From contig NC_059426.1 in assembly GCF_021028975.2 (NCBI RefSeq), positions 30,752,001-30,816,000 on the forward strand: a DNA stretch of 64,000 nucleotides, read 5' to 3'. The notes under the pieces are model-generated. The model was given only the letters and a program-made list of their open reading frames with translations, had not been told where the DNA came from and did not search any database. The stretch comes from Sphaerodactylus townsendi (lineage: Eukaryota). Numbering within the stretch: the first letter of the stretch is position 1; each line of letters begins with the position of its first letter. Both the position numbers and the translations under genes were made by a program. Shown piece after piece: positions 1,928 to 50,429 of this stretch.

Positions 1928-2889
1928 CTGTTTGAATTTGTAAAAGGCCTTTAAATCATGTTTGATGCTATTCAGTATTATTTTCATAAATAAATGCTAG
2001 TCACAAGCACAAGTAATAGCACAGGTATGAAATTACACCTGAAGATTTTTAAACAATGGCATACTAAAATGTGTACTGAAGACAGCCTGTTACGGTAACA
2101 ATATAAGTCTAAGGACAGTGATGCAATAAACTTATGTTTCTATGATATGTCAGAACTTTTTGACTATGTTTATTTTCAGGACATTTGTGCAGCACTTTGT
2201 ATGAAATCAGAGCACAGAAAAACCATGTGGGTACAACTGTGTAATTTATTGATGAGTTATTGGTGAGCATAAGCCAGTATGCAGTCCTTAACTTTTGTCA
2301 AGGCATAAGTCAAAGATAATCACTTAATTATTAATGTAATATTAATTTATTCTCAATAGTAGGAGCCTTTCTTGTTCCCAAATATGCTATTACGAAGGTA
2401 CATTTCATTGAACTATAGTTTAAACAACAGAAACTATAGACAGAGTTAAACAGGAAAACTGGTGTTTATACTGGAAAGGTTTTTTAAAATTCCCCTTCGG
2501 GGAAGAGGCGGCCTATAAATCTAAAATAATAAAATAAATAAATAAATAAATAAATGTTCATATTAATTCCAAGTATAAAAATCAGTTGACAATAATTCAT
2601 ATCATGGCTTCTCATGTATTCTTAATCAAAAGGTTATTTATATTGTGCTTAGAGGCTATTTGCAGCTGCCTTGGCCAGAAAACAAAATCTAAAACCAAGA
2701 ACACGGTCATGTAATACCTTTTATAAGAACCAACCAGAATGACCCAAACCAGTATCCAAGAAAACAATATTGTACTTTAGACTTTTCCCCCCAAAAAATC
2801 AATTGCATGCAGTAGTAGAAAAATAACTGTGTAATTAAATTATTTCTTAACCTTTTTTTAAGATAAGTGAAAAGAATTCAAGCACATAC

Positions 2890-4102
2890 CTTTGATCATG
2901 TCTGCAATGGGGACCCATTTCATTTTTAAAGGATCATAAAATTCTGCTTCTTCAGTTGGAGCTCCTTTTCTGTAACCCCCTAAAGCATAGATGCAGCCAT
3001 TCAAGGTAACTGCACAGTGGTAGTATCTTGCATTAAGCATAGGACAGCCTTCACTCCACTCGTCGGCTTCACAGTTGTATATCCACACTATATCAAGGGC
3101 TTCTATATTGTCTGTTCTATAACCCCCCGTTACATAAATGTTGGGTCCCAAACCAGTGACTGCATAGCTTTCCCTTGCGTGGTCCGGCATATCTGCACCT
3201 TGGATCCACGTGTTGGTGATAGGATCCCATATATGCACTTCAGATAAAGGATGCCAGTAATATCCTCCAATCACATACAGAACAGCTGTCGACCTTACAG
3301 AGGGTGTTTTGGGGTTATAGCTTAGTGCATTGTCTATTAGAGACCTGATCTTGTTTTCATTTAACTGGCATTTCTTGTGCAAGCTTAAGGCTGACATCAA
3401 ATACATTTTGTCTAAAGCCATTTCAAGACAGCTCAGCAAATCATAAATGTACTCAGTTCTTTTGTCCATATCATAAGATATCCACTTAACAACTGGCTCT
3501 ATCGCTGCATCTTTTTTCCAAATGCTGAGATTCTTTCTGGAGAGAATGAACTGAAGTTTCTCGCCGCTGATTTCCAGAAACTCTTCCTGCCTGCACACTT
3601 CTTCAAACCGAGATAGTAATATTCTTCTAGACTCCTTCTCTAGCTCTGAGCAGACATGGTACTCTGCAAAGGAGTGCATCCCTAGGCAGTTGACAACATC
3701 TAAGTGCCTTATCAGAAACCGTTCACAGGCTTTCTTTACTGAGGTAAACTGAAGGAGATCTGCAGCTTGAAGGAGGCTCTGAACATTTGTTTTTGTTATC
3801 TGAATCTCCGACGTGTATATATAGACCACCAGGGATTCAAGAATGGTGGGACTGAGCCCAGAAAGCTTGATCTGGTTCTTAGACTTTTCTTTCATGTCAG
3901 AAGTGAACATAGCCTTAAAGTAGTTACTACAAGCAGCCAGCACAGCCTTATGGCAATGGAAAATCACACCCGAAGTGCACTGAAGAGTAATATCTGTGAA
4001 TAAACCATCCCGGTAGAATGTTCTGAAGGCTTCTAAGAACTCCACAGGATGAGAGAGGTCCTTATATAGATAGGTATATTCCTCCTGTCCAGTCAATGCC
4101 AT
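2890..4102 (-). CDS. KLHL23: Kelch-like protein 23, first coding exon (BTB, BACK, first kelch repeats; 1213 nt CDS)
   Basis: ORF 2858..4150 from Met17 (MALTGQEEYTYLYKDLSHPVEFLEAFRTFYRDGLFTDITLQC...GGYYWHPLSEVHIWDP...). Acceptor ttgcag|TG ATG at 4104 and donor AAA G|gtatgt at 2890. Confidence 0.96.
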
Positions 4103-5899
4103 CACTGCAATAGAAATACTAAGGTGGTGAAATTCATGCAGCATATGCATGTTTAATCACATGTAAATCCCCACTGTTTACCATGGGGCTTCCTCCAAAA
4201 TTGCTGCATATAGGATTGAAGTATCTTTTTGAAGCGTTTATTTCTATTTGGGGGGGGGAACCCCACAACATTCCACAGCAATAAACAGGCACAAAGCCAC
4301 AACGAAAAGCTGTTTACTCTTAAACTAAGGAATCCAACAAGTTCAAAAAGGACCCCAAGAACTGCCTTATAATCCCTCACTCATTTGTGAGATCAAATCA
4401 CAAAGGATTTCATATACAAGGAATAAAGAACAATATTATATTGCATCAAAAGTGGCCATACCAACCCAATAAATTTAAACGTAAGAATGTTTGCTGAGTT
4501 TAGAAAGGATAACCCATATAAGGAATCTCAGAAGGATCTATGTAAGGCAGCCAAAACAATAGTAAGTCAGGCAAAGTGGCTTGTTCAGTGTTAAAAGATT
4601 CAAAATAGGTCTGAGCGGTGATACTGTGCCATTTTATAAGTTTTAAGCAAACACAACTTGGAGTTCTTAGGAAATTGGAGGACAGGCTTTCCACTATCAT
4701 CTCAGAAGTCTGAGGTTTTTTTTGCAACTTCACCACACATAGAGTTGAACCACAAACCCTCCACCAGTGTCCTGTTCTTGTTTCTATATTGTATCAGGAA
4801 GTTTGCCAAAAGTTTGAAAAGTTAAACGTAAATTAATGGAAGGCTAGTAGCACAACCTCAATAATATTTTTACATAATAAATCCTCAACTGGTCTATCTA
4901 GAACCCTGATCCAGGTTTTGCTTTGCCACAGAGAAAAATATGTTCCTGTCTGAAGAGTGGAATAGGACACATATTTCAGGCCCTTTTTCACTCAGTCAAA
5001 TTTGTTTCTGGTACTTGATGCACATATTGTACAGGAACATCTTTTAATAATGTATAATTGTAATCTTGCCATCTGAGTCGAAGTATGTATGTTTACTCAG
5101 AAGCAAGTCCAGTGAGTTCAGCAAGGCTTTCTTCCAGGTAAGTATGCACAAGATTGTAGCATTAACATGTTTGTCTATCTGCAAAGTAAAATGCATAAGC
5201 AATTTGTATAAACACATTTTTAATTGCATGGTCAGAAATATAGGGATACTTTCTAGGGGAGAAATATATATGCTAGTAATACATATATTATTATGCAATA
5301 TATGTAAGTATTTAAGTATTTTTTCCACTGGTTTTTTCCCTGCAGTTGCCTGCTCTTTTATTCCATAGTTAATTCTGAAATTTCAAAATCGTATACACCA
5401 GGCTCTGAGCATCATGTCCAGGCAAGCTGATGTTTGCTTAGTGTCTTAGTATAACAGCACTGTATGCCACAGACCTTTGTTTGAAAAACAATTTATCTTT
5501 CTTAAATGGAAGACAAAAACAACATATTTTTGAATTTGCATTGTTTCACTTTTAATTTTTACAGTAAAACACTGGTGGGTGAAAAAATAAGTTGCATTGG
5601 GAAAAAATATTCAGTCACTAACAGAAGTACTACACCACCAGTGTAAGTGCTCTAGGTGAAGGAGCCAATTTTATTTTTGGCCATTTTACCGTTTACAAAA
5701 TTCACTCAGTAGTATCCCAGTTGGGTTAGCCTGTTAACAAAGGACCCAAACCCGCTTCAGCTGTGGTGGGTGGCATTTACTCTGCGTATTTCTACGGAGA
5801 AGCAGATGAATAAATGAAAAGCCGTTGGCCCTACAAACTATGGAGCAGCCTTTGCAATATACATGTTAAGAAGAGCTGCATGCATGCTAAGCCAGTTCT

Positions 5900-10091: not shown

Positions 10092-10817
10092 TTATTGTTT
10101 TATAAGCAATTCTAAATAGGTCAGTATCTCAAGCCCAGATGACCAAGTGACCACCGATGCTTTCAAAGGAAAAACATCCTGAGACAACCGAGAAACCAGT
10201 TTCTGTAACCTATATCCCTGCCTTGGCAGAACAACATCATCCTTTTTTAAGCACATTACTGGGCATAGGTCATTTCCACCGTCGCCTATATATAAAATCT
10301 GGGAGTATTTCATCCTCTGTTTTGAAGAGTTTTCTAAGAATTCTTCTAAGACTTTCCTCTTGCAGAGGTTTACGGGGCACTGGGCACAATCATGAGCATG
10401 AAAATTCTCCACAGTGAGATAGCCACAACCATTGAAACTTGCAGGATTTGTAAACACTTCATTAAATACTTGATGGAGATCAGCAGCTTTTATAATCCAG
10501 TCAATAAATATTGCATTGGAATCTGATATAATTATGCAATCGAAAGAGTCTTTGTGTTTGCCGACAAACTCTAGGAGATCTTTCATTCCTTCTGTGAAAG
10601 GTATTGTTGTCATAGTCCTTTTCATCTCCTCTTCCTTTATTCCATTGTCTCCCAGGAATCTGAAAACTCTGCCCATATATTCTGTCCAATGTCCGTTCTG
10701 ATAGGAGTTGCTTATTTCATCAGGAACTTTTGCATTAGGTGCACATTTCACAATCCAGGTGTCACTGTTTTCATCTACAATTGTGTGGTCAAAATCAAAA
10801 ACCAGTAGAAACTTCAT
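10092..10817 (-). CDS. PHOSPHO2: Pyridoxal phosphate phosphatase PHOSPHO2 (HAD superfamily), single coding exon, 241 aa
   Basis: MKFLLVFDFDHTIVDENSD (HAD motif I DxDxT), IISDSN (motif II), YIGDGGNDLCP (motif IV). Acceptor tcttatttccag| at 10838. Synteny between KLHL23 and CCDC173. Confidence 0.95.
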   Translation of the reverse strand: MKFLLVFDFDHTIVDENSDTWIVKCAPNAKVPDEISNSYQNGHWTEYMGRVFRFLGDNGIKEEEMKRTMTTIPFTEGMKDLLEFVGKHKDSFDCIIISDSNAIFIDWIIKAADLHQVFNEVFTNPASFNGCGYLTVENFHAHDCAQCPVNLCKRKVLEEFLENSSKQRMKYSQILYIGDGGNDLCPVMCLKKDDVVLPRQGYRLQKLVSRLSQDVFPLKASVVTWSSGLEILTYLELLIKQ

Positions 10818-10948
10818 TGTTGTCAGACAAATGTCACCCTGGAAATAAGATTGAAAAAATGTTTTGCTAAAGTGACCTATATAAACAAGTATACTTGATT
10901 GCGACCTTGTAAAGAAATCCATCAGAAAAAGCCAGATGGATCACTTAC

Positions 10949-14514: not shown

Positions 14515-14662
14515 CAGGGGTAGGGAACCTGCGGCTCTCCAGATGTTCAGGAACTACAATTCCCATCAGCCCCTACCAGCATGGCCAATTGGCCGTGCTG
14601 ACAGAGGCTGATGGGAATTGTAGTTCCTGAACATCTGGAGAGCCGCAGGTTCCCTACCCCTG
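14515..14662. mobile_element. Near-perfect palindromic hAT-type MITE
   Basis: caggggtagggaacctgcggctctccagatgttcagg... / ...ctggagagccgcaggttccctacccctg. No clear TSD. Related to 44924-45046. Confidence 0.8.
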
Positions 14663-15047: not shown

Positions 15048-15266
15048 AAAAAGTTTGAGTCCAGTGGCACTATTAAGACGTGCAAAGTTGTATTCTTGGT
15101 ATAAGCTTCTGTGTACATTCACACTTCTTCAGGTACCTGAATCTGAAGAAGTGTGCATGCACATCAAAGCTTATACCAAGATTAAGACTTTGTTATTCTT
15201 AATGGTGTCACTAGACTCAAACTTTTTCCTGATGTTTCAGACCAACATGGCTACCCACCTGAATCT
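15048..15266. mobile_element. Second Penelope-like family: palindromic element with two decayed hammerhead-like cores
   Basis: Imperfect inverted repeat about 15048-15227 centred near 15135, with ctgaagaagtgtg...aagcttatacc on both strands and tail cagaccaacatggctacc. Related relics at about 20560-20690 and 28280-28462. Confidence 0.6.
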
Positions 15267-38433: not shown

Positions 38434-39559
38434 TCATCCACGTCTGTCTTCATCAGTTCCAGGACTTGATTCATGATCAGATTTTTTATCTTTCCCATGG
38501 GCACGGTCCCTCTCCTGATCCTTTGATTTTTGGTTGACCTCTTTTTCTCTTGAGGAACGGGACCTGTCCTTTTCTCTTTCCTTACTCCTGCGCGAAGATG
38601 ATCTTTTCAATTCTCTGTCTTTGCTGCTTCGCCTTTTCTTTGAATCAGGGCTTCTATCTTTATCTCTACTGGACTTTTTATGTTTGTTGGTCTCGGGGCT
38701 ACTAGTGTCACGGGTTTTTGAATGCTTTCTTTTTTCAGAATCATCCTTTTTGTGAGAACTTTTGCGTTCCTGACTCCGATGCCTGTCTTTACTTCGACTT
38801 TCATCCCTCTCGGAGCTCTGAGATTCTTTCCTTCTCTTGCTCTCTTTATTTTTAGATTTTTCCGGTGTCTCTTTTCTGTCTCTGCTTCTTGATCGTCCAC
38901 TTCTTTTATATTCCTTATCTTTGTATTTGGAATAATCTTTACTTCTGCTGCGTTCTCGTTCTTTGCTTCGGGTCCTGGCTCGCTTCCCTCTCTCCCCGCT
39001 TTTGCTCCGCTCTCTGGTCTTACTATTGGAGCCGTGTTTACTTTTTGATGGTTCACGTTCTTTGCTCTTGGACTTGGCGTGTTTTTCTCTGTCTTTACTT
39101 TTAACGTGATTCTGACCGTTACTTTTAGATTCCCCTCTTTTGTTCTTTTCCTTACTTCTGCTTCTCTCTCTTCCACGGGAATCGCCGTATTTTTCTTTGT
39201 CCCTCTCTTTCTCGTGGTCCCTCTCCCTGCTTCCCAGTCTACTTTTCTTTTCTTCATGTTTGCTATGTCGGGAGTCCTTCTCCTTACTTTTTGATACTTC
39301 TTTGCTTTTGCTCTGGCTTTTGGATCGAGCCCTTTTTTTGGCCTTACTTCTGTTATGCTTCTCCTTATCCTCCTTCTCTGAATTTCTCCTTGTCTCCCTG
39401 TCTCTACTGCTGGATTTGTGATCTTTTGTTTTCTTTTCCTTCTCCCCTCTCCTGCTGGGGCTCTCAGAAGTTTGTCTATGGTCAGATGCTTTTCTTTCCC
39501 TTCCTCGCCCAGGGCTTTTCTGATTTGCAGCATCCTTCTTGTTCTCGTTAACTTCACTC
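38434..39559 (-). CDS. PPIG: PPIG terminal coding exon (Arg/Ser-rich domain)
   Basis: ttttaaag|G SEVNENKKDAANQKSPGRGRERKASDHRQTSESPSR...GTDEDRRG*. 1126 nt, with both ends checked in frame. The ORF track missed this frame. Confidence 0.93.
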
Positions 39560-39646
39560 CTTTAAAAAAAAGAGAGAAGAAAATTTGGTCATTAATAAAT
39601 GAAGCTGTGTTTACATTACAAATAATATATTATTTTGCTGTATATA

Positions 39647-40135
39647 CAGTGGAACCTCAGTTTTCATTGCCTTCGGTTTTCATCGATTTTTTCAGTGAAA
39701 AATTTGTCTCGGTTTTCATCGATTTGCCTCGGTTTTCATCAATTTGCAGTAAGGTGCAGGGGCTTGTAAAGAAAAATCACCTGGACAAAGCTGTTGCAGG
39801 CCATGTCTGCAACTTGTTTAATGACAATGTCTTGCCCCATTTCAGACAAATCTTAAAGAGGCATCAGAAACAGACCTCTTTGGACAGCTTTCTGGTGCGA
39901 CATTGGTCCACTGGCTCTGAAGCTGGTCCTAATGTTATTGTTTGTTACTGTTTTCAGCATTAAACACTATGTTTATTCACCAAAAATGTGTTTTTGATAT
40001 GTTTTTTGGAGTGCCTAGAACGGATTAATTGGATTTACATTGATTCCTATGGAAAAGTTTGCCTCAGTTTTCATCGGTTTCGGTTTTCATCGATTCTTTT
40101 CGGATGGATTACCAACAAAAATCGAGGTTCCACTG
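39647..40135 (+). mobile_element. Tigger/pogo (Tc1-mariner) internally deleted element
   Basis: TA|cagtggaacctc ... gaggttccactg TIRs, with a transposase C-terminal remnant CNLFNDNVLPHFRQILKRHQKQTSLDSFL. Confidence 0.82.
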
Positions 40136-42961: not shown

Positions 42962-44660
42962 CTTTAAATTAAAAGCACAGACATACAATCATCGAAGCAA
43001 AAAACCCAAATAAGTCTTTTTCATCTTTTTAAAATGATCACAGAAGTATGAAACAATGTCTGGCTACTTTCTATAAACTAATACTGATTCCCCAATTTTT
43101 TCCTCTGATCAACTAGTAAAGAAATCTTCGTGTCATATTAGAGATGTTTTTACACTTAGCTGGCCACTGAGTCCTCATATCAGATTGACAGAAAACCCGC
43201 TGTGCCTGTAGAGACAGTTCTAGACACCTCTGCTATTTTGTGGAAGGCAACTAAAATCAGTCTGCTGTCATGGAAATCTTGGAACTTAATTACATATAGA
43301 GAGAGGTGGGGAGAGAGGGAAAGGAAGCGCTAGGTAGACAGAATGGTAGGTAGGTAGATAGGGTCTTAAATGATAGTCATACCTTAATTTAACACATAAT
43401 TCTTTCCCCACATTATATCAAACTGAGTCATATCAAACTGAACAGCAGCCCTGGTATCCTTGGCAGTCTTGCATCCAAGAACTACTAAGGACCCACCCTG
43501 CTTAACTTCTGAGATTCTTTAGGCCACAATGGATCACAAACAGAATCATAATGATCCAGATGTTCCTCCTGAATTACACACAGAATAAACTGCCATAAAA
43601 TACAGAAATGTACAATCTCTATTCAGATGGTGCATAGGAGAAATCAAGGCAGAAAACATCCTATGTGGAAACTTACGATATGTAAAACCACACTGTTAAT
43701 CCACTACATTTTGGAGTTGACCACCAGGCATCTATTTTTAATGAAATGATTAATATCTGTGCACCATCTGTTATCTAACCTTCTCCAGTACCTCAAGCAT
43801 ATAATCCCAATACATTTTATCCCTTCACTTGGAGCACAAGCTTGAACATCTGACCAGTCGAACGTTATCAAAACAATTGTCAAGTATTTATAACAAATTA
43901 ACTTCTTTAAAACATACAGTACTTTACAGTGCAATCCTAAGAAGAAGTACATTATTTTAAGTCCACTGAAGTCAATAGCCTTAGAAGGGTGTAACTCTGC
44001 TCGGAAATGCACTATTAAACATCTGATTTTGTAATCAGCGTGACAGTTATAAAACAATGAATTTTAAAAAATGAATTGTTTCTGGTAAGTAGGCACTTCA
44101 CTGAAAATTTCTCTTTGCTTCTTTTCCTGGGACACCAGAGTCAGCCACATTTATAGAAGTTTGAAAAAAGAAATTGAAAACAAAAATAAAGCAACAGCAA
44201 CTATGAACAAACCGAAGCAAGTTTTGAAAGTTGCCGATAATAACTGTCAACAGACTTAACTTTTAAAAACTGTGACTTACACTGTAGCATTTACTTAGTT
44301 GAAAAGCTGACAATATCAGACAGACATCAAATGAAAGAGACTGACATTATTTGACCTAATTCAGATATCTGAAGCTTTAGCAGATACAGAATGAAAGGGC
44401 AAAGTGGGACACGGTTAAAGAAAACCCATTACACCAACATCATAAAAACTATGTTAGGGAGATTATAATTGACTTCTGGATACTGGTTGTGGTGGGTTTT
44501 CCAGGTTGTGTGGCCATGGTCTGGTAGATGTGGTGTACTTCTGGATATGCTGGCAGATATGCCACAGAAGACCACCACACCACGATGCCCACAGAGCAGA
44601 GATCTCCCAATAAATTACACCTGTAATCCAAACAATGTATGTTACAAACAAAACCAAAGC

Positions 44661-44834
44661 AATGTATTGTCGAAGGCTTTCACGGCCGGAATCACTTGGG
44701 TGCTGTGTGGTTTCCGGGCTGTATGGCCGTGTTCTGGCAGCATTCTCTCCTGACGTTTCGCCTGCGTCTGTGGCTGGCATCTTCAGAGGATCTGCTAGAA
44801 CACGGCCATACAGCCCGGAAACCACACAGCACCC
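44661..44834. mobile_element. Penelope-like element terminal fragment with 43-bp inverted repeat
   Basis: Same family as 71-242 and 49800-49930. Arms 44698-44740 and 44792-44834 are reverse complements with 1 mismatch. Confidence 0.75.
44748..44790 (-). ncRNA. Minimal type-I hammerhead ribozyme motif (Penelope-like-element type)
   Basis: Minus RNA reads UCCU CUGAAGA U GCC-(13 nt)-GGC GAAA C G UC^AGGA. It has the full core, stem I UCCU/AGGA, stem II GCC/GGC, palindromic ACGU stem III and a GUC cleavage triplet. Confidence 0.75.
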
Positions 44835-44923
44835 AAAACCAAAGCAGCCAGCATCAGCAGTCAATTCGCCCAGGTTCAATTGCAATAACAGTTTTCTCCA
44901 TGGTTTATTTTGTTCACCTAGAC

Positions 44924-45046
44924 CAGGAGTCTGCAACCTGCGGCTCCCCAGATGTCCGTGGACTAAAAATCCCATCAGCCCCTGGCAGAGGCTGATGGGA
45001 ATTGTAGTCTATGAACATCTGGAGAGCCGCAGGTTGCAGACCCCTG
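44924..45046. mobile_element. Palindromic hAT (Charlie-like) MITE
   Basis: 8-bp TSD acctagac at 44916-44923 and 45047-45054, with long TIRs. Confidence 0.87.
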
Positions 45047-46416
45047 ACCTAGACGTTTCCCCACCTGCCTTTAAGAACCACACTTATAACATGTATTCCC
45101 TGGTATCACTTGCTCATCCTGATGTCTTCCACCATTCTACTGAGCTCTCATCACCATTCTACTGTGCTCTCCTCCTTTCGTGGATTCTCAGAACCCATCC
45201 ATGTTATTAAGGCCTTTCTCGTCCCACTGCCTAAACATCTAAACAGTGCTGCTGCTCTGATGTGTGCCTGTCGCTTCATTCTGCCTTTCCAGTCACTTCA
45301 GTCTCCAGATTTTAAGATCATCATGGCTGATTGACAGCTGCACAAGATGATCCTGATGGACAAACTAATTGCATACAACTCCCCAATCGGAAAAGGCTTT
45401 TTACTACCAGTTTCCTTCACTTACCATAACATCCTTATCAGGGCAGATAAGGATTAGTTCCCTCGCCTGCACTCCTCAGCGCTCTTCACTCCTTCCTTTA
45501 ACATTCTGCACAGAAAGTCTATTAGTCTTTATATTCTCTTGCCATCCTCCAAAGACTTTACTACTGTGCCTCCTGCCTGGTTGGAATGGCTATTCCCATG
45601 GGTTCTAATAGCTGTCTCCTCTGTTGTTAACAGAGGAACTGCTCCATGAAACACCTAGGATTTCAGCAGTATCCCAGGGTATCTCAAAGGCTGTACCTTC
45701 AAGCATCAGTAGCACTATGACATTTACCACATTCATAGCTAAAAGCAGATAAGTTGCAGGAAGAAGTGAGAAAGAAAAACCACAGCAGTGGTTTGTCACT
45801 TTGAAGTATGGGCTAAAAGCATCAGAGCTTTGCTAGGAATAGATCATCTATACTTGCTCATCCCATCACAAGCCCGAGGAAAGAAATCACTACATGGGGA
45901 ACTGTGCGCCATGCGAGAACACATAACATTTCAAGTATGAGAGTCGCACATTCCAGAGTTCACCTAATATCTCCTTCAGGTTCGCATCAAAACATAAACA
46001 AGCAGCAACATTTGGGGCATTTTCACAAACAATTTTCAAAAAGTGGTCTAACTGCCTCTAATCCATGTTGCCTGACCCTGCTCAATTACCAGAAAGCAAT
46101 CAGGCGACCACACACATGAAAGAAAGAATAGCTTCTCAAAATAGAAACCCAAAATCAGAAATTTAACTAACTACAAACACAGTGATCCACATTTAGGATT
46201 TCCACATTTCGCTATTGGCTTACATCAGCTATTGCTCGGTAGGCAGCACATGTTCCTCCAAACAATGTCGGACACAACAGATCTACGTAGATCAGGATCA
46301 GGTCCCAGAACTAGAGACATAGTACGCTTATTAATTCATACACAGAGGCACAAATATTACCAGATTGTTTAATAAGTGCATATGTTCTTCTGGCACAAGG
46401 TGCCTTCTGCTGACAT

Positions 46417-46701
46417 AAGAAGAAGAGTTTGGACTGATACCCCGCTTTTCTCAGCCATAAGGAGACTCAGAGCAGCTTACTGACTCCTTCCCTTCCTCTC
46501 CCCACAACAGACACCTTGCGAGACAGGTGGGGCTGAGAGTGTTCTGAGAGAACAGTGACTAGCCCAAGGTCACCCAGCAAGCTCCATGTGGAGGAGCAGG
46601 GAAACAAACCCAGTTTACCAGATAAGAGTCTGCCAGTCACGTGGAAGAGTGGGGGAATCAAATCTAGTTCTCCAGATTCAAGTCCACCACTCTCAACTAC
46701 T
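46417..46701 (-). mobile_element. Squam3-like SINE copy
   Basis: Similar to 12068-12360. Confidence 0.8.
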
Positions 46702-46867
46702 ATGCAAGAGAAAAGTAAAAGCCTCACCAGAATGAAATGACAGGATCCAAACTAGTGATTGCACTGAAGTGTGTTGTTTGAAAAGTACCAAATCCAGCCT
46801 TCAAAACAAATTCTGCTGCAGAACAGCAGAATTAGGCAGACTTAAGTAGCAAATCTATTTGCTACTT

Positions 46868-47050
46868 GATGGAAAGTGCCATCAAGGTGACCCCATAGGA
46901 CTCTGGAGGTAAAAGATGTACAGAGGTGGTTTGCCATTGCCTGTGCAGCAATCCTGGATTTCCTTGGGGGTGTCCTATCCAAGAACCAACCAGAACCAAT
47001 CTTGCTTAGCTTCTGAGTTCCGACAAGATCAGGCTAGCCTCGGCTATACC
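46868..47050 (-). mobile_element. 5S rRNA-headed SINE copy
   Basis: tgcttagcttctgagttccgacaagatcaggctagcc is the reverse complement of the 5S head. Confidence 0.7.
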
Positions 47051-47614
47051 TGGGAGTTAATTCCATTACATGAAATAGTATTTACTTCTAACCAAACATG
47101 GTCTAACTGTCGATTGTACAAAGGATATAGCAGTAGAAAAAATTGCAGAACCTCTTAATCCATACCACTCCTTGCAAAACTGCATTTAGCAGACAAGAGC
47201 AGAAGTTACAGGTGTAACACGTTGTCAGAAATGTCATTAGTTCATGCTAGGCTATAGTTTGTAACATGTGCCTCACAGTAACAAGTGAATACTTGTTCAT
47301 TTAAAAAAAGCGTTAACCGTTGCAAATCACGAATCTGTTTTTCTAGGTAATGAGGGTGAACACAAGGAGGACCAAAATTCACATTCCATCTGCAAAGGGT
47401 CACAAGGAAAGACACCACAAAGAAGTCAAATTTCACAATGTTCTAATCTAACTGAATGCACTCTTGTTACTATTCCTATGACAGCAGTTATGCGGAATTA
47501 ACTGGAGTTCTCTGTTGCTAAGCCACCCAGCCAGATCCACCACACCTCTGATACGAACAAAATCATGAAAACCATCTGTGCTTAGAAACATTTGAATAGG
47601 TATTTAGACCTTAC

Positions 47615-48370: not shown

Positions 48371-48761
48371 CAGTGGCGAAGCCACCAGGGGATGGGGTGT
48401 GTGCAACGCACCGGGCGCATTATTTCTAGTCACGTGGGGGCGAAAAAATCCCCCTCCCCCGCACTTCCCCGCGGCGCCCCCCCCCCCTTGCGGCAACCAC
48501 CCCAGTTACTTTTAGGAATGGAGAAGGTCCGGAAGCCTGCCTGCATTGCCTGGGCCTGGTGGGAACTACATTTCCCAGAGTCTCCTGGGAAATGTAGTTC
48601 CCACCAGGCCCAGGCAACGCAGGCAGGCTTCCGGCCTTCTTCTCCGGCCTGCTCCTTTCCTACAAGTAATTGGGGTGGGGTGTGCGAAGGGGGGCTCCGT
48701 GGGGGGGGGGCGCAAAAGCCAGAGTGTGCACCAGGCACACTCTGGTCTAGCTACGTCTCTG
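48371..48761. mobile_element. Non-autonomous hAT-like element with internal palindrome
   Basis: 8-bp TSD ttgcttca at 48363-48370 and 48762-48769. Internal inverted repeat about 48523-48640. Confidence 0.82.
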
Positions 48762-49799: not shown

Positions 49800-49930
49800 G
49801 TTGTTTGGCTGGTTGTGGTGCCACAGATGCAGATGAAACGTTAGGAACAAGACCTACCAGACCACGGTCACACAGCCCAGAAAACCCACCACAACCAGTT
49901 GAATCCAGCCATGAAAGCCTTTGACAGTGT
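49800..49930 (+). mobile_element. Penelope-like terminal fragment, 5'-truncated hammerhead half
   Basis: gccacagatgcagatgaaacgttaggaacaagacctaccagaccacgg... is the reverse complement of the 71-190 family. Confidence 0.65.
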
Positions 49931-50429
49931 TGTTTGGTTTTTTTTATAAGTTAAGGTGACTTGTTCTACCACAACTGTTCTCAAATGTCGTCAGAACAAG
50001 CATGATATCTGGCCTTTCCCATCTGTTATACCTGCATCCAGACTGTCCTTCAAAAAACAGAATGGTTTACATAGGACTAACAGCCTCCCAATCAGGTATT
50101 GGTCAAATCAGCCCCAATAACGTTATGACATCAGGTGCTACCAGATAATAGTTGCAAAGCCAGTAACATAGCAGATGCTTACCCTAACACACAGTCACAA
50201 CTACTAAAATATTCAAACTTGTTCCACATTATACTTAGAATCCTGTTTACTACTTCCAAAATAAACATATAAGAAAGCAGTTACACTTCAAATAGTTAAA
50301 AGGTACTCATATTTCGAACATGGAAAAGGAGTTAGTCATTTCAACAATTCAAAGTCACAGTTTTGGAATTTAAATTGCAACGACTACCATCCAAATGGTG
50401 AAGAAACACAGTAGCTGCATGATACTCAC

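Follow-up and report, generated by a model that had tools for sequence, protein, structure and literature searches.

A young Penelope-like stub with a lone minimal hammerhead in a gecko PPIG intron, and what its family suggests about two-sided priming

Introduction

Does an intact hammerhead ribozyme, clamped in a long hairpin and lying in sense inside an intron of PPIG, serve its host gene, or is it the trace of a mobile element, and how did the hairpin around it arise? We addressed these questions in a 64,000-nt stretch of the Sphaerodactylus townsendi genome (the window, to which all coordinates refer). In the reading that we hold with a probability of roughly 85%, an abundant Penelope-like element (PLE) recently left this lineage-specific stub of 172 nt, flanked by a 13-bp target-site duplication (TSD); its hairpin likely derives from two cDNAs primed at two target nicks, and the single hammerhead that it carries is predicted to lack activity and to be without effect on PPIG.

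Published systems, cited throughout from the accessible parts of the papers, set the frame. In the anole element both target strands are nicked and then extended, and the tail is bounded by two RT start sites; the hammerhead of this element showed no cleavage without the protein and cleaved with it, and no RNA-seq reads end at the cut site (PMC11167929). A monomeric minimal hammerhead did not cleave (PMC4209133). The formation of inverted pLTRs and tails has been described as unresolved (PMC8557442). The anatomy of such insertions is already in print; new here are the one-of-each count and the non-nested arms. Twin priming in PLEs was not found stated in the literature searched by title and abstract, and the figures of PMC11167929 and the bioRxiv supplements, which lie outside that search, may bear on its novelty. 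Three supplementary text files of PMC11167929, searched by term, had no mention of it either, and the title and abstract search likewise returned nothing on gecko PLE hammerheads.

Results

The minus strand at 44748-44790 carries a complete minimal type I hammerhead, read from the sequence as a 4-bp stem I, the core, stem II and a loop-less palindromic ACGU. On that strand UCCU (44790-44787) forms the 5' side of stem I, followed by CUGAAGA (44786-44780), a bulged U (44779) and stem II, in which GCC (44778-44776) and GGC (44762-44760) enclose a 13-nt loop; GAAA (44759-44756), C-G-U-C (44755-44752) and AGGA (44751-44748) follow. The predicted cut falls between 44752 and 44751. With all core nucleotides located on this strand, the intact core and the cut site named in the original prediction stand. 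Judged by the features given in PMC4209133, the motif resembles the minimal hammerheads of metazoan PLEs in having all core bases, an unpaired base between 9 and 10.1, G10.1-C11.1, a palindromic 15.2-16.2, no loop 3 and a 4-bp helix I, and in occurring mostly in single copies. It differs in its helix II of 3 bp (5 with the bulge), compared with 7-8 in schistosomes, and in lying inside a 43-bp hairpin.

The arms of this hairpin, 44698-44740 and 44792-44834, are complementary at 42/43 positions, just as first described, and at 44/45 when extended out to 44696/44836. The stability of the fold is far above chance (z = -14.3, with 0/200 shuffles equally stable). A search with Rfam hammerhead models had been proposed as a check of the motif; when run on the window, the scan gave no hammerhead family among 21 matches at E ≤ 1. 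The loop-less form may lie outside the Rfam models.

PPIG lies on the minus strand: the exon at 47754-47615 has its best matches in PDB chains of PPIG (E 2e-22; NKTR, E 4e-13), and the exons flanking the 4,653-nt intron at 42962-47614 join in frame. Since this intron, read from 47614 to 42962, and the ribozyme are both on the minus strand, the ribozyme is sense to the PPIG pre-mRNA, and the exon match together with the in-frame joining bears out the orientation originally assigned. Approximately 2.8 kb of intron separate the insertion from the donor, and 1.7 kb lie between it and the acceptor. Among the neighbours, a BTB-BACK-kelch protein and a PHOSPHO-type phosphatase are encoded on the minus strand at 2861-4156 and 10095-10940, a gene order that we take to fit the KLHL23-PHOSPHO2-PPIG block. 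A plus-strand frame at 39382-39960 runs antisense to the last PPIG intron and exon, and its second half presumably resembles the end of a Tigger/pogo-type transposase.

The whole insertion occupies 44662-44833 on the minus strand (172 nt) and is bounded by a perfect 13-bp duplication at 44649-44661 and 44834-44846. Both this duplication and a 35-nt tail at 44661-44695 had been left out of the earlier reading. Counted from the start of the PLE ORF, the ribozyme-bearing arm (44661-44794, minus strand) extends from pLTR -14 to ORF +120; it includes the hairpin 3' arm (44696-44740, minus strand; +41..+85) and, on this arm only, the minus-strand PLE tail (+86..+120). The inverted second arm (44792-44836, plus strand) covers ORF +41..+85 without a tail and is joined to the first via a common CAG at 44792-44794, so that the ATG-to-end distances of the two arms are 85 and 120 nt. 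The ATG itself (44778-44780, minus strand) falls inside the ribozyme, where it comprises A9, the bulged U and G10.1, and it opens the RT-coding frame in the full-length copy L073. Over -13..+120 the insertion is 99.3% identical to the pLTR of L073, and its coding content amounts to the first 40 codons of the PLE ORF. It has one core, a second arm that is inverted and coreless, and no tandem array.

On this anatomy we read the 43-bp helix as the inverted pLTR piece typical of PLE insertions and as no added stabiliser. The suggestion that an added helix stabilises folding thus loses its ground, as the helix is the usual inverted pLTR piece and is predicted by folding models to displace stem I from its register. 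The insertion shares with those of endonuclease-bearing PLEs, such as Pen2a_Av, a head-to-head inverted arm, a one-sided tail (35 nt here, 30-40 nt there) and a TSD, whereas it differs from the Pen2a_Av-type rotifer insertions in being a miniature without a coding body and in its 13-bp duplication, compared with 8-10 bp (PMC3846280, PMC8557442). Like the non-LTR retrozymes it is a short, hammerhead-bearing derivative of a PLE pLTR; however, those are head-to-tail tandem repeats, a feature absent from the window insertion, which is a single head-to-head insertion (bioRxiv 10.64898/2026.07.22.740005).

Across the genome we counted 10,758 identical copies of the core with its stems, 5,369 on the plus and 5,389 on the minus strand, or about 6 per Mb. 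With this many intact cores in the genome, a young copy will have one as a matter of course. The original prediction had itself stated that many similar copies in random orientation would mark the locus as a neutral recent insertion, and the 10,758 identical cores without strand bias speak against a special role in just this way. Its statement that the other copies in the window have broken cores was correct for all three pieces: C3 is changed to U in the core at 55-190, CUGAAGA is missing at 49820-49949, and 44482-44534 has no core. The last of these is an older second PLE stub in the same PPIG intron; it is flanked by 11-nt direct repeats that resemble a target duplication belonging to this stub. 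A two-armed insertion of the family spans 55-241: its older-type arm, with the broken core, occupies 55-190, and a piece of tail lies in inverted orientation at 205-241. The copy at 49820-49949 belongs to an older subfamily, is antisense to PPIG and is approximately 75% identical to the 44662-44833 insertion.

L073, chosen as the full-length reference because L074 is heavily broken, contains identical 135-nt direct repeats (916-1050 and 3621-3755) around a 2.7-kb unit and an inverted pLTR copy at 779-886. It matches RVT_1 at E 6e-11, and its RT frame opens at the ATG inside the ribozyme and is frameshifted further on. No long ORF was found in the upstream frames of L003. In 8 loci the ORF closes with a GVY..YIG motif; a GIY-YIG endonuclease domain was not recognised by sequence searches of Pfam and PDB, and atlas matches at 0.97 had GIY-YIG carried by 12-28% of members. 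No cysteine occurs in the 90 residues before the GIY-YIG motif of L023 and L044, inspected by eye after PMC8557442. The family therefore shows the features of endonuclease-bearing PLEs of the Penelope/Poseidon clade, namely an RT ORF, a C-terminal GIY-YIG, direct and inverted pLTRs, a tail with TSD and the cysteine pattern. By the tested features, the insertion belongs to the endonuclease-bearing PLEs with minimal hammerheads, with its clade placed by architecture.

Two further palindromic insertions, at least one of them from an older PLE subfamily, lie beside the full-length copy (L073 71-225 and 612-732), which may point to clustering. Additionally, L063, L067, L076, L086, L088 and L117 represent at least three subfamilies that differ upstream of -15; ahead of stem I they all retain a TATA-like box, a pyrimidine stretch and TCAGATC. 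The CAG at that place also resembles a splice acceptor, which has been reported for the Drosophila virilis element (PMC4209133).

Absence of the insertion from relatives was the second observation that the original prediction had named as marking it neutral and recent. A contig of data set X6 joins 44661 to 44851 with the insertion absent (6 letters between, 4 expected), and X7, a run of the same coded organism from the same study, has a 2-nt insertion at this junction. In contigs of X7 and X5 the right 13-mer (44834) passes directly into the left flank, leaving a single copy of the 13-mer. The flanks of X6 differ from the window at 12/311 letters, so that these relatives are about 4% divergent. 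For X5 the empty-site contig differs at 8/62 letters, which makes its orthology less sure; over window 44200-45300, X5 gave low-depth pieces identical to the window along with the empty-site contig, 87% identical, and its data may come from a mixture. The insertion junction is present in X2, a further sample from the best-matching organism. Runs X1 and X9 gave no sequence over 44822-44917, which speaks neither for nor against the insertion. The site is thus empty in X6, X7 and, less surely, X5, which indicates that the insertion is young, argues against a special role for the locus, and departs from the conservation at the orthologous site that characterises RECK-type domesticated intronic hammerheads. 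Of the earlier reading, the Penelope-type minimal hammerhead and its sense placement within a PPIG intron remain; the special role does not.

To relate the locus to its family, we took a sample of 90 loci within the initial 6.3 Mb of contig C1, 30 anchored at +17..+43 and 60 from a second list, a few of which look like duplicated segments. The outer ends of 134 arms cluster at ORF +79..+93 and +111..+120. Among 49 head-to-head pairs, 46 combine one short and one long end, two are long/long and one is untyped, so that one of each holds in 46/48 typed pairs (p 4e-12 against 50:50). An exact duplication of 11-15 nt accompanies only 26/49 pairs, and 24/74 typed arms have no partner within approximately 950 nt. 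The inner ends distinguish the pairs further. Among 47 mixed pairs, 21 are non-nested, the tail arm being shorter at its inner end by at least 10 nt so that neither arm covers the whole of the other; 10 of these 21 are compact with a duplication of at least 9 nt. Of the rest, three are nested, 17 have about equal inner ends and six extend past the query. At the window locus itself the tail arm contains the other arm, making it nested.

Inner arm ends also pile up at -16..-10 (43/98), although this is partly forced by the anchor used for 60 loci, which requires arm ends to lie at -12 or further upstream, and the ends that BLAST gives close to junctions can be off by a few bases. Under the same constraint, 61/83 arms in the locus sample do not continue upstream. 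By eye, the 30 loci anchored at +17..+43 comprise 13 that stop at -15..-10, nine that continue, seven that stop at -6..+16 and one that is unclear. Genome counts fall from 19,518 at -12 to 5,014 at -17, a drop that overstates truncation because the subfamilies differ upstream. The pile-up lies just before stem I, at an Inr-like TCAGATC about 27 nt below the TATA-like box, and it likely marks where the RNA begins; the same data would also fit stalling of the RT, annealing at GATC or a 3' splice site at the CAG, and no shared upstream exon was seen in the sampled loci.

These arm ends lead us to regard it as probable that the stubs are a genome-scale record of two-sided priming, in which each insertion receives two cDNAs, started at +85 and about +120 from opposite nicks some 13 bp apart, often run off at the RNA 5' end (-16..-10) and joined head to head. 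The one-of-each outer ends, together with arms of which neither contains the other, argue for two cDNAs from two nicks. Another course would be self-priming, which would give the same neutral stub: one cDNA, or an antisense template (PMC3846280), folds back at the CAG microhomology and copies itself, the tail being left by endonuclease resolution (PMC8557442). The window locus, nested like three sampled pairs, agrees with it, as do 17 more pairs with about equal inner ends, often at a palindromic GATC, so that fold-back also explains 2/48 long/long, 17/47 equal and the three nested pairs. It fails, however, at 21/47 pairs and at 7/12 loci that share the window junction, in which the tail arm lacks the 5' sequence of the other arm and the other arm lacks the tail, and neither can therefore be a copy of the other. 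As each arm has sequence that the other lacks, a single fold-back cDNA cannot yield this class, whereas two readings of the RNA can; we consider self-priming unlikely.

The exact window junction recurs at 12 loci with different flanks, as it might if a hairpin mini-element, MITE- or retrozyme-like, propagated itself with a fixed junction. Exact duplications of at least 10 nt accompany 9/12 of these loci, one of them inside a microsatellite. In 5 of them the ribozyme arm carries the tail, in 7 the other arm does, and the 12 loci include two sequence variants; furthermore, junction positions across the family form a continuum, 12 loci are few compared with 10,758 cores, and the window locus has no tandem array. 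Such an element is therefore very improbable. Given the different flanks and both tail polarities, the junction likely forms anew at the common CAG instead of spreading as a unit.

Discussion

Two-sided priming suggests the following course for the window locus. An endonuclease would make a staggered target cut of about 13 bp. One 3' end would prime RT at +120 and run to the RNA 5' end near -14, copying the whole uncut ribozyme, while the other would prime at +85 and stop at +41; the two cDNAs would then join head to head by CAG/CTG microhomology. That many stubs hold the whole ribozyme would follow from cDNA running to the likely RNA 5' end just before stem I. If true, two-sided priming would account by one mechanism for the inverted pLTR, for a tail on one side only and for solo intact hammerheads in their thousands, and would tie the stubs to the predicted protein dimer.

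The closest comparison is with Poseidon PAc of the green anole (PMC11167929). Both carry a hammerhead in the pLTR with the ORF start inside it and two template sites bounding the tail, the last approximately 111-118 nt into the ORF in PAc and 116-120 in the gecko-genome family, with AT-rich targets and an uncut RNA template. The cut, in contrast, lies 29 nt after the ATG in the window copy and 26 in PAc. Inverted arms are absent from the main text of the PAc paper, whereas insertions of the present family pair the two sites, one of each. The genome thus supplies thousands of natural PLE products that can be compared with the in vitro system of that study; they follow a sharp one-of-each rule, and their arms include non-nested ones.

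As for activity, the absence of loop III means that a solo ribozyme such as that in the window needs a partner copy (PMC4209133). Stem I would then be intermolecular, formed between the two copies of a double hammerhead. No second intact core exists in the PPIG part of the window, and the 43-bp clamp would hold both strands of stem I in cis. In folding models, estimates of secondary structure that leave aside tertiary contacts and Mg2+, the pair probability of stem I was 0.000 with the clamp and about 0.02 without the arm, and the ribozyme-like fold lay 6.3 kcal/mol above the minimum with the clamp and 2.5 without. The natural pLTR context is also unfavourable, at 5.5 kcal/mol above the minimum, and the double hammerhead reached +17.9 kcal/mol clamped and +11.3 unclamped. 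The clamp is thus predicted to hinder the ribozyme, and the lone hammerhead is predicted to be inactive in the PPIG intron.

The genome counts give a similar picture of the template. Around the cut they pass from 20,565 to 19,848 to 19,079: the two bases leading up to it bring a loss of 3.5%, and the step over the cut itself one of 3.9%. No excess of copy ends at the cut site appears in these counts, and in the absence of a step there is no clear footprint of cut RNAs. A footprint of cleaved templates was likewise not found among inner ends, only 2/98 of which lie at +27..+33. This is in line with uncut RNA as the template, as in the anole study (PMC11167929). Because the anole ribozyme cleaves with its protein (PMC11167929), the window ribozyme may also be cut with the help of protein.

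ADAR could edit a duplex of 43 bp. As an ADAR or Drosha substrate, however, the window hairpin would hardly stand out, since many of the sampled copies form hairpins with longer arms (about 85-100 bp). That the host has co-opted the intronic ribozyme for cutting PPIG pre-mRNA or altering splicing, perhaps with an element protein or partner transcript, or the hairpin as a regulatory ADAR/Drosha substrate, is the least probable of the readings and most doubtful: an intact core, sense orientation, a stable 43-bp duplex, protein-assisted cleavage in the anole element (PMC11167929) and the domesticated intronic hammerheads of amniotes (PMC6155905) speak for it, but the site is empty in relatives about 4% divergent in the flanks, an intact core is expected of a young copy, the position is deep in the intron, and the clamp is predicted to disfavour the active fold. 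The amniote hammerheads in RECK, CTCL and DTNB are likewise type I, intronic and sense to the host gene; however, those are kept across amniote lineages, whereas close relatives lack the window copy, which belongs to a set of more than 10,000 (PMC6155905). For PPIG, a young intronic stub is probably without consequence, and an intact intronic hammerhead is no sign of function where genomes have active PLEs.

Other hairpins populate the surroundings. An abundant MITE-like hairpin at 44918-45052, about 70 nt from the PLE insertion, has a relative at 14515-14662, gives weak mir-5408 matches and is also present in contigs of the related organism. The miRNA matches of the Rfam scan in the window correspond to other hairpin repeats, with scores under the gathering scores, and were set aside. 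Near-perfect hairpins at 48529-48634 (50-nt arms, in a PPIG intron) and 15048-15227 (85-nt arms) are probably non-autonomous DNA elements.
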